Shown here in pieces: positions 1 to 60,477 of a DNA stretch of 64,000 nucleotides. The DNA is from Candidatus Omnitrophota bacterium (GTDB taxonomy: Bacteria; Omnitrophota; Gorgyraeia; Gygaellales; Profunditerraquicolaceae): NCBI GenBank assembly GCA_003598025.1, contig QZKH01000003.1, positions 439,221 through 503,220 on the forward strand. Reading direction: 5' to 3'. The notes beneath the pieces were generated by a model that was not told where the DNA came from, searched no databases, and worked only from the letters and a program-made list of their open reading frames with translations. The translations under genes and the position numbers were made by a program. Numbering within the stretch: the stretch's first letter is position 1; each line of letters starts with the position of its first letter.

Positions 1-521
1 GCAAACTTTTGCAAAGCGCAGTGAATAATTTCTCTGACTATCGGCATCGCACGGTTAACTGTTCCGGAAGCCACATCTGTGATGTCTATAATCCGATTGT
101 TTGAATCGAGACAGACGACCTTAAAGACCTCTGTTTTAAGGTCGAGGAGCTGGGGCATGACGATATCCACAACATCCTTGGCAGAGGCGATTTTCTGCTT
201 CCCGGTGGACACATCGTCCTGTCGATAGCGCCTCCCGATTTCAAGCGCGGCCTGAATATGGGCGATCTTGGCCCCACCCAAACCCTTGAACTCTTTCCAG
301 TCCCGGGCGTCTGTGTGGGCCATGTTCCGGAACGTGCCGAATTTCTTGAGTATCTTGCGGGCGAGGTCAATGGCGCTGGTGCCTTGTGTGCCGGTACGAA
401 GAAGAATAGCCAGAAGCTCCGAATTACTCAAAGCCCCCGCACCCTTTTTGAGGAGTTTCTCTCTCGGCCTGTCATCCTCCGGCCAAGTCCTTATGCCTGA
501 TATTTTTCTTTCCTTCACCAT
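1..521 (-). CDS. radC: RadC-like JAB/MPN domain protein (UPF0758), partial; the 3' end runs off the window start
   Basis: The minus-strand frame is missing from the ORF track because it has no stop in the window. It translates to MVKERKISGIRTWPEDDRPREKLLKKGAGALSNSELLAILLRTGTQGTSAIDLARKILKKFGTFRNM...LGGAKIAHIQAALEIGRRY...VVCLDSNNRIIDITDVASGTVNRAMPIVREIIHCALQ. This is the canonical RadC N-terminus and HhH region. ATG is at 519..521 (rc). Confidence 0.8.
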   Translation of the reverse strand, partial: MVKERKISGIRTWPEDDRPREKLLKKGAGALSNSELLAILLRTGTQGTSAIDLARKILKKFGTFRNMAHTDARDWKEFKGLGGAKIAHIQAALEIGRRYRQDDVSTGKQKIASAKDVVDIVMPQLLDLKTEVFKVVCLDSNNRIIDITDVASGTVNRAMPIVREIIHCALQKF

Positions 522-2642: not shown

Positions 2643-3242
2643 TCACCCTTGTATTTTCCTGAAAATATCCCCTATCCATGCCGGAGCATAACGGATATCA
2701 TTCATCAGTATATTTTTGTCAGCATCGGACAGTCGTCTTTTAAGTTTTGCCACAACAGTCGAATCAATATTGCCCTGCTTTAAATAACGCAAGGCCTGAA
2801 TGACTAATCCGCTTATTCGCCCGGCTGTTGCCATGTTTCTTGGCGTTGTTCGTTTCAAAACGATCGTCTGCTTACCGATCTGAACTTTCCGATTAGGACC
2901 ATCTGTAAAGAAAACGATCTTGGCCGGAACCTGCTCTGTTAAACCTAACAGATTAGCGGCATATGCGCCGGAAGGCTGAATTTTCAAATTATCTCGTCCC
3001 ACTAATGCTTGAGCAACGCGATCATAATTAGGCGGAAGGTCACCGAAATCCGGATGTTTTACGGGATAATCATATAATCCCCTCGTCAGGCGGCGTATAA
3101 TCCCTGCCTTGGTTAAACGTCCCAACGTTTGGTCTACGGCCATACGGCTCCCGAGGTCAAGAAAGTGCATTGGAGTGAACACCCAACCCCTATGCCTGCC
3201 GTATATCCTGCTAACTATCATATTATCAATGGTTTGTGCCAT
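2643..3242 (-). CDS. abiEi: AbiEi-family type IV toxin-antitoxin antitoxin / transcriptional autorepressor
   Basis: 199 aa with an N-terminal winged-helix-like region. It sits 7 nt upstream of abiEii, which is the standard AbiE arrangement. Confidence 0.75.
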   Translation of the reverse strand: MAQTIDNMIVSRIYGRHRGWVFTPMHFLDLGSRMAVDQTLGRLTKAGIIRRLTRGLYDYPVKHPDFGDLPPNYDRVAQALVGRDNLKIQPSGAYAANLLGLTEQVPAKIVFFTDGPNRKVQIGKQTIVLKRTTPRNMATAGRISGLVIQALRYLKQGNIDSTVVAKLKRRLSDADKNILMNDIRYAPAWIGDIFRKIQG

Positions 3243-3259
3243 TTATACCACCTCTCTGT

Positions 3260-3289
3260 TGTCAGAAAAAATATACACTTTTTCTGACA
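3260..3289 (-). promoter_or_regulatory. perfect inverted repeat TGTCAGAAAAA-N8-TTTTTCTGACA upstream of abiEi; candidate AbiEi operator
   Basis: 11-bp arms with an 8-bp spacer, 18-47 nt upstream of the abiEi start codon. AbiEi proteins are known to autorepress by binding inverted repeats in their own promoter. Confidence 0.5.
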
Positions 3290-3329
3290 GAAAGTCAATC
3301 TATTTTTATGCGCCCGAGCCGCTATCCTA

Positions 3330-3560
3330 AATGTCTACCATCCGGAAATGTCCACTTTTTAGCAGACATTTCGATTTAGTGGACACTTACGTGTCCATCC
3401 ATGTCCATCAAAACGCCCTTTTTTGACCTTCCCGGACGCCTGCAGGACACCCCTAAAATCGCCTGTTTTCCGACGCTGGGCGCTTATTTTAGCCGGGTTG
3501 ACCACTTATGCCCAAACCCAAAAGTGATGGACATGGACATCGATTTTTTTGACCACTATC
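3330..3560. repeat. cluster of TGTCCA/TGGACA half-sites, including the 18-bp palindrome TGGACAC-TTAC-GTGTCCA, and two copies of TTTTTTGACC, inside a GC-rich non-coding island
   Basis: Read directly from the sequence. Six hexamer copies in both orientations (3349, 3380, 3393, 3403, 3529, 3535). TTTTTTGACC occurs at about 3421 and about 3549. No convincing ORF spans the region. Confidence 0.5.
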
Positions 3561-3937
3561 ACTGACTCCCCGCGCCTCGCCCGACCCTCACCCGACACCC
3601 TGTTCCAAGGACCCGTAGCGCCTGCCAGCATAAAAAACCCTATGACCACGCCTCACTGGCATAACCATAGGGACTTGAGTTGCCAAACGCTGTTGATCCT
3701 TACAACGCCCCGACTACCGCCTCCGCCAAGCTCTTCATCGCATTACTATAAATCTGCCACTGGCCAGCCAAAAGTTCGAAGATAAACAGTTTTTTTCATC
3801 AAGGCTTATTCCTTTCTTCGAATCTTTTGGTTGATCCCGAGCGAAGCCGACACCGAGAAAGCCCGAGGAAAAAACCATTGGTGTAAAGAAAACCTTTCTT
3901 CATCTTATACCTTCAGTAAAAAATATAACCGCTCCTA

Positions 3938-5410
3938 TTATTCAGTCTCAGAATTTCTTAGCACCGACAAAGTGCGCTGTAAAATCCTTAGGTCTTCCTC
4001 ATTAGCGAGCACTAAGAAAACATCGCCTCCCTCAATTACCGTAGAACCATTTGGCACGATGAACTTATCTTCGCGCGAAATAAGAACAATAAGGGCTTTA
4101 GGAGGAATATTAATTGCGGCAATCGTTTGACCTACCGTGCCTGAATTATATGGCACAATCAAATCGGTAAGCGATGCATCTATGCCCTCTGCATACTCAA
4201 AGTCAATAGGATATTTTTTCCTTACATCAAGCGGTACATTGACTCCAAGTATCTTTGACATAAGTGGAATAGATGTCCCCTGAATCAATACCGAAGTCAA
4301 TACAACAAAAAATACGATATTAAATATTGCGTGAGCTTGAACTATTCCTGAAAGCAGCGGGAATGTCGCCAAAATAATCGGCACAGCACCTCTTAATCCT
4401 ACCCATGATATCATCGTTTTCTCGGCAAGATTGAATTTAAATGGCATTAGGCATAAAAATACACTTATGGGGCGAGCGAGGAAAATAAGAATGGTTGCTA
4501 TCAACAGGCCAACTCCCATAATGGGAATTATCCGGCTTGGGAAAACAAGCAAGCCAAGAGTCAAAAACATTGCAATCTGCATGAGCCAGGCAACTCCTTC
4601 ATAAAACCGGACTATTGTTCTCTTGTTTGCGAAATCGCCTCTACTCATCATTAAACCCAAAGAATAAACTGCCAGAAAACCATTCCCTTTTACTAAAGTT
4701 GTACCTGCATACGTCAAGAGCACCAAAGCAATAGTCAAAACCGAATACAACCCTTCATATTCAAGCTTAATCTTATTAATAAGCGTGACACTTACTTTAG
4801 ACATCAAATACCCGATTAACAATCCAACACCCATATTTAAGGTAAACGATGGGATTAGGCTGATAATGGAAGAGTCAGCAGTAGTTAAGAGGCCGATACA
4901 ACCGATTGTAAGGAAAACAGCCATTGGGTCATTACTTCCCGATTCAAGCTCCAAAAGAGGCCTTAAATTACCTTTGAGGGATATCCTTCTTGATCTGAGG
5001 ACATTAAAGACAGCGGCAGCATCGGTTGAGGACACAATAGAACCGAGCAATAATCCCTCAAGCAATGAAAATTTAAGAATTACCATAGCCAATACGCCGA
5101 CAACAACAGCAGTAATGAGCACTCCTGCGGTTGACAAAACCAACCCCGGAACAAATAATGGCCTGACCGATTTCCATGATGTATCCAAACCCCCAGAAAA
5201 AATAATGAAAATAAGCGCGATGATACCGATAGATTTTGCAACAACGTAATCATCAAAATAAATTCCGCCGATGCCTTCTGAGCCTGCCAGCATGCCGATT
5301 ATCAAAAAAAGCAATAATGCGGGTAACGCAAACCTGTCTGAAAGCTTGCTTGCCAGTACGCTGACAAGCGTCAAAGCTGCTGCCCATAATATGATTGTTT
5401 CGACTGTCAT
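3938..5410 (-). CDS. K+/H+ (NhaP2/CPA1-type) cation:proton antiporter with a C-terminal TrkA-C domain
   Basis: 490 aa with about 12 TM helices. The C-terminal soluble domain contains VPNGSTVIEGGDVFLVLANEEDL, typical of TrkA-C. Confidence 0.85.
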   Translation of the reverse strand: MTVETIILWAAALTLVSVLASKLSDRFALPALLLFLIIGMLAGSEGIGGIYFDDYVVAKSIGIIALIFIIFSGGLDTSWKSVRPLFVPGLVLSTAGVLITAVVVGVLAMVILKFSLLEGLLLGSIVSSTDAAAVFNVLRSRRISLKGNLRPLLELESGSNDPMAVFLTIGCIGLLTTADSSIISLIPSFTLNMGVGLLIGYLMSKVSVTLINKIKLEYEGLYSVLTIALVLLTYAGTTLVKGNGFLAVYSLGLMMSRGDFANKRTIVRFYEGVAWLMQIAMFLTLGLLVFPSRIIPIMGVGLLIATILIFLARPISVFLCLMPFKFNLAEKTMISWVGLRGAVPIILATFPLLSGIVQAHAIFNIVFFVVLTSVLIQGTSIPLMSKILGVNVPLDVRKKYPIDFEYAEGIDASLTDLIVPYNSGTVGQTIAAINIPPKALIVLISREDKFIVPNGSTVIEGGDVFLVLANEEDLRILQRTLSVLRNSETE

Positions 5411-47371: not shown

Positions 47372-49372
47372 TCATTTTATTTTCCAAATCTTCTCTTTAT
47401 ACTGGTCAAGCATGCGGTAAGTATTAAAATACCCGCCGGTAGCCACACAATTAATCATAATATCTATCCATTCGGAATCTATATTCACACTCGTCCCTTT
47501 ATTGGTCTCATAATATAAACGTGCCATATCTTCCAGGGCCTTATGTAACTCCTTGGAATCCTGTTCAAGATGGAGCTCGCTCTCATTACCGATCTCACCT
47601 TCCTTATTACAGTATCCAAATATTCTACCTATATTGCTGTCTTTAGCTTCGACTATCCAGCCGTCAAGGGTGCTGATCTGGAGCACGGCGTTTAGAATCG
47701 CTTTCATACCGCTTGTCCCGGAGGCCTCAAACGGGGGCAAAGGATTATTTAACCATACATCAACGCTTGAAGTAAGCATATGCGCAAGGGCTATCTCATA
47801 ATTTTCAAGCATGATAATTTTTAAACTGCCGAATGAACCCGTAAGCCGGTCAATCTTATCAAGCATCGTATTAATATGGGTGAATCCAAGGTCGTCATTC
47901 GGATGAGCCTTGCCTGCGAAAATTATCTGTATGGGCCCCACTCTCTCTGATATCTCTATGAGCCTGTTAACATCTTCCAGTATCAGGCTGGGACGCTTAT
48001 ACCCTGCCATTCTTCTTGACCAGCATAATGTAAATATGTCCTTATCCAGCTTCCATTTGCTTAGCTTGTTCGATAATTCTATCTTATTATTCTGATGCGC
48101 GTTCCAAATACTGGCGCGAAACTCATTATCATCCCTTAACCGGTTAACCTTACTTAAGCTCATAGGGTCAGCTTCTATATCCCCAAGGACGGGCCTATAT
48201 TTCTCATAAAGTTCTTTGAAACGGCTAGAAATCCATGTATGTGAATGCACACCGTTAGTAACATAGTCAATCCTATCTTTATATTTAGGAAATTGGATAT
48301 GCATTACCTTCTGGTGGTTTAAAGATACGGCATTTATGGCTGAAGAAGCGTTCATTGATAACAAGGTAAGATTAATGACATTTTTTGATTCTAAGCCGAA
48401 TTCTTCTGTCAGTTCAAGGTCTTTCGGATTCAATACATTGCTTAAGTCATTGTGGCTGAACCTGTCATGCCCGGCCTCGACCGGCGTATGGCATGTATAA
48501 ACAAAATTCTTCCTTATATCCTGAACCTGTTCTTTCGGCAGGCCTCTGGCCTTTTCAATAAAAGAAAAAATCGCATGGCCTTCGTTAAGATGATAGATAT
48601 CTATATTATATTTTAATTCACGCAACGCAGAAACACCGCCCATGCCCAATATGACTCTCTGCATTATTTTAATCCATACATTATCGCTGCGGTAAAGCTG
48701 GTCAGTAAGGTGTCTGTCTTTTTCGCTATTCTCGCTTAGATTTGAATCCAATAATATCAGGGGTATCGCGTAATCATGCTTATAACTGTAAACATAATAT
48801 TTCCAAAGCCGCAAATATATATCTTCGTCTTTTAGGGAAATCTTTACCCTGTCTTTTAAAGGAATAAGCCCGGGATAAGTAGCATGGTCCCAATGCATCT
48901 CCTCCGGTACCTGGCCGTATTTAAACCAGAATCTCTGTTTAAAATACCCGGAGTTCCAGAGCATGCCGATGCCGGCAACAGGCAGCTTATAATCAGCCAT
49001 CGTTTTTATAGTATCGCCAGCAAGCACCCCTAAACCTCCGCTATATATAGGCATATCTATGATATCGCCGACCTTAAGAGTAAAAAAATAATCTCCCAGG
49101 CGGAAATTAGAGAAAACTTCATTCTCCTGGCTTTTATTTTTAATGTCTATCGGCCTGTTAATCGAAAACCGGTTGTAAAAACTGGATGCAAGGCCGTATT
49201 CCATTGAAAAATAAGCTATGCAGCGTGAATCCTGTGAACGCAGCCTCTTTTCGCATTCGATTATGCTCTCAAGCGGCATGCCGAAATAAACGTCATCGGT
49301 TATATCTTTACTGTAAACATCTTCGAAGTTATCTACATTAACCAAAGATAAAAACTCTGATAAAGGCCCCAT
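47372..49372 (-). CDS. alpha-glucan phosphorylase family protein (GT35-like)
   Basis: YFSMEYGL and YSGGLGVLAGD motifs, typical of the alpha-glucan phosphorylase family. Confidence 0.75.
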   Translation of the reverse strand: MGPLSEFLSLVNVDNFEDVYSKDITDDVYFGMPLESIIECEKRLRSQDSRCIAYFSMEYGLASSFYNRFSINRPIDIKNKSQENEVFSNFRLGDYFFTLKVGDIIDMPIYSGGLGVLAGDTIKTMADYKLPVAGIGMLWNSGYFKQRFWFKYGQVPEEMHWDHATYPGLIPLKDRVKISLKDEDIYLRLWKYYVYSYKHDYAIPLILLDSNLSENSEKDRHLTDQLYRSDNVWIKIMQRVILGMGGVSALRELKYNIDIYHLNEGHAIFSFIEKARGLPKEQVQDIRKNFVYTCHTPVEAGHDRFSHNDLSNVLNPKDLELTEEFGLESKNVINLTLLSMNASSAINAVSLNHQKVMHIQFPKYKDRIDYVTNGVHSHTWISSRFKELYEKYRPVLGDIEADPMSLSKVNRLRDDNEFRASIWNAHQNNKIELSNKLSKWKLDKDIFTLCWSRRMAGYKRPSLILEDVNRLIEISERVGPIQIIFAGKAHPNDDLGFTHINTMLDKIDRLTGSFGSLKIIMLENYEIALAHMLTSSVDVWLNNPLPPFEASGTSGMKAILNAVLQISTLDGWIVEAKDSNIGRIFGYCNKEGEIGNESELHLEQDSKELHKALEDMARLYYETNKGTSVNIDSEWIDIMINCVATGGYFNTYRMLDQYKEKIWKIK

Positions 49373-60336: not shown

Positions 60337-60363
60337 AAGCCAATGTCCTCCTGTTTGGATTTT

Positions 60364-60411
60364 GTAGGAGTTATCAGCCTGTTGAGGCGTTTATTGGCAA
60401 ACCCCATTGCC
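60364..60411 (-). promoter_or_regulatory. fluoride riboswitch (crcB RNA motif) in the crcB leader
   Basis: In minus sense: GGCAAUGGGGUUUGCCAAUAAACGCCUCAACAGGCUGAUAACUCCUAC. It aligns position-for-position with my recollection (recalled from memory; not verified against a database) of the crystallised Thermotoga petrophila aptamer GGCGAUGAGGCCCGCCCAAACUGCCCUGAAAAGGGCUGAUGGCCUCUAC. The GGGGUU/AACUCC pseudoknot is complementary. A TATAAT -10 box lies at about 60433..60438 (rc). Confidence 0.85.
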
Positions 60412-60477
60412 AGTATTAATCTTCAGTTTATTATACCCCTTAACCTCTAAAAAATCATCTTTTATTTATTGCTGCTA

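Follow-up and report, generated by a model that had tools for sequence, protein, structure and literature searches.

The 695-bp gap between abiEi and nhaP2 in a 64-kb stretch of Omnitrophota DNA (the whole stretch analysed, hereafter the window) contains a conserved non-coding element, and we consider that this segment, 3391-3614 on the minus strand, is probably a lambda-type cos site on a satellite-like island inserted in miaB. The window copy of this element, which we call E, is part of an inserted island and evolves under selection. Its homology, its position, the architecture of its sub-sites and its co-variation with the small terminase subunit indicate that E is most likely the cos site of a phage lineage with gpA/Nu1-type terminases.

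Results

The genes in this part of the window all lie on the minus strand, and the gap (3243-3937) separates abiEi (2643-3242, start at 3242; product DUF6088/AbiEi) from nhaP2 (3938-5410, stop at 3938). In minus-strand order, the gap is made up of the nhaP2-miaB spacer, a miaB stub, an island arm, a terminator, E, a set of extra sites and the abiEi promoter/operator (Table 1). The initial annotation had described a GC-rich region without a credible open reading frame (ORF), and both observations hold. No credible ORF lies between 3242 and 3938; the Pro/Ser ORF at 3549-3785 (78 aa) has no Pfam match, and one-nucleotide indels disrupt the small ORFs in homologues. GC content is 0.49-0.545 across 3301-3800 against 0.38-0.46 on either side, rising to 0.54 against about 0.40-0.45 around. 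The repeats it had listed were also recovered, namely the dyad TGGACAC-TTAC-GTGTCCA at 3380-3397, further TGTCCAT copies at 3392 and 3402, the distal inverted pair, in which GATGGACATGGACATCG at 3526-3542 pairs with 3398-3410 as a 13-nt perfect inverted repeat, the twice-repeated TTTTTTGACC at 3419 and 3545, and the stem-loop CCCTATG...CATAGGG at 3638-3672. TGTCCAY is enriched here, 6 of its 16 matches in the window falling inside 190 bp (about 8 are expected in the whole window). That description did not contain the four AAATGTC(C/T)AC-type sites at 3329-3386, the nature of the hairpin, which is a terminator on the minus strand only, or the 5' remnant of miaB at 3767-3799. From its sequence, the terminator is predicted to shield E from nhaP2/miaB read-through. 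Terminator, miaB stub and abiEi promoter/operator are neighbours of E and no part of it. A possible 34-codon upstream ORF (3799-3903, minus strand), the stop of which overlaps the miaB start codon (ATGA), may be a miaB leader peptide or uORF.

Table 1. Features of the abiEi-nhaP2 gap, by position in the window
Feature	Position	Strand	Remarks
Perfect 11-nt palindrome TGTCAGAAAAA-N8-TTTTTCTGACA	3260-3289	-	Overlaps abiEi promoter
abiEi promoter TTGACT-17-TATATT	3298-3270	-	Not part of the putative cos element
Four extra R-like sites	3329-3386	-	AAATGTCTAC 3329-3338, AAATGTCCAC 3346-3355, inverted AGACATTT 3364-3371, inverted GTGGACAC 3379-3386
Distal cosB-like pair, plus strand GTGTCCATCCATGTCCATC	3391-3409	-	Inverted relative to proximal pair; putative lambda R2/R1 analogue
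Spacer	3410-3525	-	116 nt, sequence variable, length constant; A-tracts, TTTTTTGACC at 3419
Proximal cosB-like tandem hexamers, minus strand ATGTCCATGTCCATC	3526-3540	-	Start ~75 nt after cosQ; sequence varies with TerS lineage; putative lambda/N15 R3 analogue
I2-like segment between cosN and cosB	3544-3571	-	Poly-dA tract (plus-strand TTTTTTT 3544-3550) and conserved CAGTGAT
cosN-like GC block, minus strand GGGTCGGGCGAGGCGC	3572-3587	-	Nearly invariant even between phage groups with TerS 33% identical
Putative cosQ heptamer GGGTCCT	3608-3614	-	Preceded by TACG, then T
Intrinsic terminator, 15-pair stem and T-run	3638-3672	-	Folding z = -3.7; stem conserved, loop differs among loci
Island terminal arm, minus strand GCCAGTGGCAGATTTATAGTAATGCG...GGATCAACAGCGTTTGGCAAC	3673-3764	-	~90 nt; in five other contigs follows 3' end of large serine recombinase gene
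Displaced miaB 5' end, insertion junction	3765-3799	-	ATG at 3799, MKKTVYLRTFG, then out-of-family WPVADL*
Native nhaP2-miaB intergenic DNA	3800-3937	-	

Related Omnitrophota carry an intact miaB after nhaP2, on the same strand and either adjacent or within a few kb. In the window only the first 11 codons are present (3799-3767, 33 nt); since the reading frame ceases to match the family beyond codon 11 and the 64 kb contain no further miaB sequence, we conclude that DNA was inserted into the 5' end of miaB, with the right-hand junction at 3765. An island boundary had been suspected here, and it can now be placed at ~3765, inside the truncated miaB 5' end. The competing suggestion of pseudogene debris applies to the 33-nt miaB remnant only and fails for E. 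In five other contigs (L084, L086, L094, L109 and L115) an intact large serine recombinase (Resolvase, Recombinase and Zn_ribbon domains) ends in ...LLRTFGWPxxxL* and is followed by the same arm as in the window, a join that, judged by its sequence, appears to be the attP-type configuration expected of an element recombining within the LRTFG codons of miaB. Because the same arm follows the miaB stub in the window and the recombinase 3' end in these five contigs, the window appears to show the right junction of such an element. The left end of the island lies off-window, and its visible part, 3.7 kb, contains no integrase or replication genes. The 5-kb island of L127 has at its far end a serine-recombinase 3'-end remnant that runs on into miaB, and the small islands of L108 and L127 retain an integrase remnant at most. 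Among the flanking gene clusters examined, which sample the islands in part, there was no replication module of their own, no helper-responsive repressor and no packaging-redirection gene, and for this reason we do not class it among the PICIs.

The cargo visible in the window comprises AbiE, a metallophosphoesterase and RadC, with a type I restriction-modification (RM) system next in two contigs of the same gene order. Downstream of chromosomal E copies the cassettes are interchangeable (AbiEi+AbiEii, AbiEi+Fic, AbiEi_2+NTP_transf_8, LexA-like, XRE), and a GC-rich radC follows further downstream in 14 chromosomal loci, often with restriction-modification genes next to it. The comparison with relatives proposed in the initial annotation supports an insertion: miaB is intact after nhaP2 in these genomes, and nhaP2 loci without E are also without radC. 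The radC fragment of the window (1-521, minus strand) has 55-60% GC, against ~42% for the genome, and its protein is 76-90% identical among the E-bearing loci that carry radC; this gene travels with the island and is not core. L036 (1405-2193) and nine other loci (cluster C3) encode a 262-aa secreted protein of the class-D beta-lactamase/transpeptidase family (STFK motif; Pfam Transpeptidase) as cargo that separates the island arm from the terminator; the window lacks this gene, its arm running straight into the terminator. Four loci of close relatives (L001, L002, L007 and L012) have 2.3-4.1 kb of other DNA, without E, between nhaP2 and an intact miaB, and the space between these two genes may be a general hotspot for insertions.

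E itself, 224 nt on the minus strand (3614-3391), recurs in ~40 Omnitrophota contigs with differing genes on both flanks, and a 21-mer taken from it matches 47 metagenome contigs and 2 IMG/VR contigs. The flanking genes are widely different, yet always co-oriented with E. Region 3328-3776 matches the Omnitrophota MAG L036 at ~90% identity, against only 64% DNA identity for nhaP2 in the same comparison; one flank of the L036 locus carries a different antitoxin/nucleotidyltransferase pair and the other flank an additional class-D beta-lactamase-like gene. In loci with both E and radC, mean pairwise identity is 0.889 for E, 0.894 for radC codon positions 1+2 and 0.631 for position 3; the identity of chromosomal E thus equals that of radC positions 1+2 and is far above that of position 3, which indicates purifying selection on the chromosomal copies. 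A blastn search of E against cultured phage and plasmid collections gave no match, and an exact-protein lookup of the window AbiEi returned no record. Core length is 222-224 nt in 31 distinct copies, the exception being three copies with 52-nt palindromic insertions. These insertions (CCCCGTTAGAAAT...ATTTCTAACGGGG) occur in two different places, at ~2297-2350 in L036 and elsewhere in E in L108 and L122, and by their sequence look like a small mobile hairpin element of MITE/REP type.

Six of the contigs matched by the 21-mer are phage-like, two of them from IMG/VR. Their gene order on the minus strand is a sigma-like gene, a replication initiator, E, a ParB_N + N6/N4 DNA methylase, TerS (phrog_57) and TerL (phrog_15). 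The E profile matched 35 of the 45 TerS-homologue loci that a TerS search retrieved from IMG/VR; the ten misses are contigs ending before the position of E, so that all 35 informative loci are positive. In each of these 35, E has the same orientation as terS and ends ~1.3 kb before it, with the methylase gene as its immediate downstream neighbour. On the upstream side the neighbouring gene differs among phages (Rep, truncated Rep, membrane protein, others), whereas the downstream methylase-TerS-TerL trio is constant. The phage TerL has the Pfam domains GpA_ATPase and GpA_nuclease and is 27% identical to lambda gpA (E-value = 3e-43), and the winged helix-turn-helix of the phage TerS aligns with lambda Nu1 (S.R.I...QGMPV; E-value = 1e-4). 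In the phages, Nu1/gpA-family terminase genes are therefore adjacent to E and co-oriented with it; the window's own copy sits on an island instead. Four loci (L150, L151, L154 and L157) carry DnaA-box-like TGTGGATAA/TGTGAATAA repeats ~40-60 nt upstream of cosQ, just past a truncated Rep gene, and these repeats may be a phage origin.

E opens with TACGGGTCCTT; the phage copies begin with the full 13-mer TTTACGGGTCCTT, identical to lambda 48467-48479, where the window has CTACGGGTCCTT. GGGTCCT (lambda 48473-48479) is reported as lambda cosQ by Wieczorek & Feiss (2001); we verified its coordinates and the lambda sequence. The heptamer lies upstream of the cosN-like block at 3614-3608 in the window and is kept in 57 of the 60 copies listed, the exceptions being L099, which has GGGTCCC, and two divergent phage copies, L166 and L170, which lack it. 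Within the GC block, GGGCGAGGCGC starts GGGCGA 25 nt after cosQ; in lambda the distance is 23 nt and the sequence that follows is GGGCGG (GGGCGGCGACCT). The right end of lambda reads ...cacTTTACGGGTCCTTtccggtgatccgacaggttacg and the left end GGGCGGCGACCTcgcgggttttcgc, and compared with the lambda cohesive end the block agrees at 5 of 6 positions in the left half and at 7 of 12 overall, without lambda's flanking CG...CG and with no clear two-fold symmetry. Among the contigs examined, no contig end falls in this block. The resemblance of GGCGAGGCG to the P2 cohesive end is probably due to chance, because the P2 terminase belongs to a different family.

The proximal hexamers lie ~45-55 bp from the GC block, and their sequence follows TerS: proteins at least 87% identical to the query go with ATGTCC, those at 67-74% with ATGTCA and those at 33-39% with GTGTCA. 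The TerS recognition helix shifts together with the hexamer (SPRMIRRYVQ, SPRMVRRYIK and SERTVYRWRN), while cosQ and the GC block are unchanged. This constant offset from the cosN-like block and the TerS-tracking sequence are those of lineage-specific TerS repeats, and TerS binding is predicted. The earlier impression that the repeats look like protein-binding sites seems well founded, the repeats being best read as a nucleoprotein assembly site. Group-1 phages and all chromosomal copies have a second, inverted pair past the fixed-length spacer, which we propose, by analogy with lambda I1, to be a bend region; phage groups 2 and 3 (TerS 33-74% identical) have the proximal repeat only, before the first gene. 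The extra R-like sites, the direct copies of which are 17 nt apart, occur only in chromosomal/island copies and never in phage copies.

Discussion

The order of the sub-sites, with cosQ followed by 25 nt, a GC-rich cosN-like block, I2-like poly-dA, the proximal TerS hexamer pair, a 116-nt spacer and the inverted distal pair, would correspond to a complex cosB comparable to lambda R3-I1-R2. For related phages, E would be the place where terminase binds and nicks the DNA and packaging begins, directly upstream of the genes for the ParB-methylase, the Nu1-like TerS and the gpA-family TerL. In the window, a large serine recombinase would have integrated the island into the opening codons of miaB, and a helper-phage terminase that recognises the island cos could package the excised island, as concatemers, and so spread it, by analogy with cos-bearing PICIs and P4. 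The simplest guess for the four extra AAATGTCCAC sites is that they would add TerS binding. A promoter or operator role could coexist with a cos role.

If E is a cos site, it provides a concrete and testable packaging signal for uncultivated Omnitrophota phages, and phages with a large terminase only 27% identical to that of lambda have kept the lambda cosQ signal unaltered. Small islands carrying AbiE, restriction-modification and RadC genes are identified with the same signal as phages, and this shared signal suggests that phages help to spread defence genes in a phylum without a genetic system. For annotation, it would account for a conserved non-coding block that can readily be misread as an operator or as an RNA gene.

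The order of the putative sub-sites (cosQ, cosN, I2, cosB) and their orientation relative to terS/terL are those of lambda cos, as are the cosQ heptamer (in phage copies also its flank), a G-rich block starting GGGCG at a nearly equal distance from cosQ and a total length of ~200 bp. E also shares with lambda a poly-dA/dT segment resembling I2 (PMC4856287). Repeats are found at ~45-55 bp from the GC block and have an inverted counterpart across a spacer, as R2 stands opposite R3 across I1; R3 occupies bp 50-65 in lambda and bp 48-60 in N15, and terminase cuts 47+/-2 bp from R (PMC9026076). That the cosB-like repeats change with TerS while cosQ and the cosN-like block stay constant recalls the pair lambda and 21, in which cosQ/cosN are constant and cosB is lineage-specific (PMC4669245). 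There are also differences from lambda: the TerL of E-bearing phages is only 27% identical to gpA, E has tandem hexamers in place of 16-bp R boxes and a spacer of 116 nt instead of ~35 nt, a ParB-methylase gene lies between cos and terS, and the host belongs to the Omnitrophota. As in N15, with its single critical R3 in a simple cosB, phage groups 2 and 3 keep the proximal repeat alone; unlike N15, the window copy is of the complex type, simple and complex being assigned here from sequence alone.

Cos sites on chromosomal islands have a precedent in the PICIs of E. coli (PMC6739421, PMC9026076). Like Gram-negative PICIs (for example EcCICFT073) and satellite P4, the E islands are chromosomal, carry cosQ/cosN-like sequences matching those of the presumed helper phages, have no terminase genes of their own, adjoin accessory/defence cargo and appear to be integrated site-specifically. 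PICIs have a diverged cosB with an Rpp adaptor, whereas the island cosB is of the same type as that of the presumed helper, with four extra sites. Also unlike PICIs, we saw no rpp, alpA, primase-rep or capsid-redirecting genes in the E islands, the integrase gene codes for a large serine recombinase and overlaps attP with its 3' end, and some islands are only 3-6 kb long and keep no more than an integrase remnant.

It may be that the chromosomal cos copy acts as a defence device, instead of or besides serving as a mobility signal: its eight TerS-type sites would titrate or misdirect the terminase of an infecting phage, or the extra sites beside cargo promoters would let TerS switch the Abi/TA cassettes. 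We regard this as unlikely, although, if true, it would explain the strong purifying selection on E in 3-6-kb islands without an integrase. A transcriptional control region, in which a promoter (perhaps for the phage sigma-like factor) and operators switch on the packaging operon or the island cargo, seems rather improbable to us. E is always co-oriented with downstream genes and insulated by an upstream terminator, the phages encode a sigma-like protein (phrog_1740), and L036-type loci have a TTGACT-17-TAAAAT promoter just before the four extra sites; yet there is no conserved sigma-70 promoter (one weak match at 3514-3486 loses its -10 in many copies), abiEi has its own promoter, and ~60 contiguous invariant bases across very divergent phages go far beyond what a promoter needs. 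Such a role would also leave the identity with lambda cosQ and the fixed distance between GC block and repeats unexplained.

The initial annotation had also raised iterons, and an iteron origin bound by the phage Rep and copied into islands would account for the tandem and inverted short repeats and the A-tracts of E, and for the replication-initiator gene that ends 7 nt before E in group-1 phages. We consider this very unlikely, however, as the upstream gene is Rep in only some lineages and elsewhere encodes a membrane or unrelated small protein, while the packaging genes downstream are constant; moreover, the repeats track the TerS recognition helix, and the DnaA-box-like sites of some phages fall outside E. 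As DnaA boxes the motifs of E themselves were rejected, fitting the consensus at only 5-7 of 9 positions.

The chances that the GC-rich segment encodes a structured ncRNA or cis-regulatory leader, as had been suggested from its high GC in a low-GC genome, seem to us very slim. E is strongly conserved, and a 13-15-bp long-range inverted repeat closes a 114-nt domain; this sole long helix is an invariant inverted repeat and so is uninformative either way. Neither Rfam, at gathering and permissive thresholds (E-value <= 10), nor ARAGORN found anything in the gap, minimum free energy z-scores are 0.07 on the minus strand and -1.3 on the plus strand, and RNAalifold on 31 copies (225 columns) gave -22.6 kcal/mol, to which covariation contributed only -0.88. 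The variable spacers share no structure. Thus, we found neither excess folding energy nor an RNA structure supported by covariation.

AbiEi-family antitoxins autoregulate via inverted repeats, and the TGTCCA array had been thought to be such an operator; the 13-nt inverted repeats, which flank ~114 nt with one weak promoter match, could likewise suggest an inverton with an invertible promoter, but we give either reading hardly any credence, since the same array is kept in phages and before unrelated first genes (DUF6088, AbiEi_2, XRE, LexA-like partners, ParB-methylase), is neither specific to nor overlapping the abiE promoter, and has its spacer in one orientation in all ~65 copies. The separate palindrome over the abiEi promoter (3260-3289) is, from its sequence, the likely AbiEi autoregulatory operator. 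Integron attC/attI sites were rejected on the grounds of a single copy per locus, no intI and no R''/R' boxes, and a Tn7-like or MITE end was rejected given that conservation runs beyond the inverted repeats and the interior varies.

Two further observations concern the window. The sole Rfam match in its 64 kb is a fluoride riboswitch (crcB motif) at 60358-60420 on the minus strand, which scores 57.9 bits against a gathering score of 34. In every copy of E, as at 3572-3600 (minus strand) in the window, the cosQ-cosN interval contains GGG-N4-GGG-N3-GGG-N2-GGG, four conserved G-runs that match the canonical G-quadruplex pattern.
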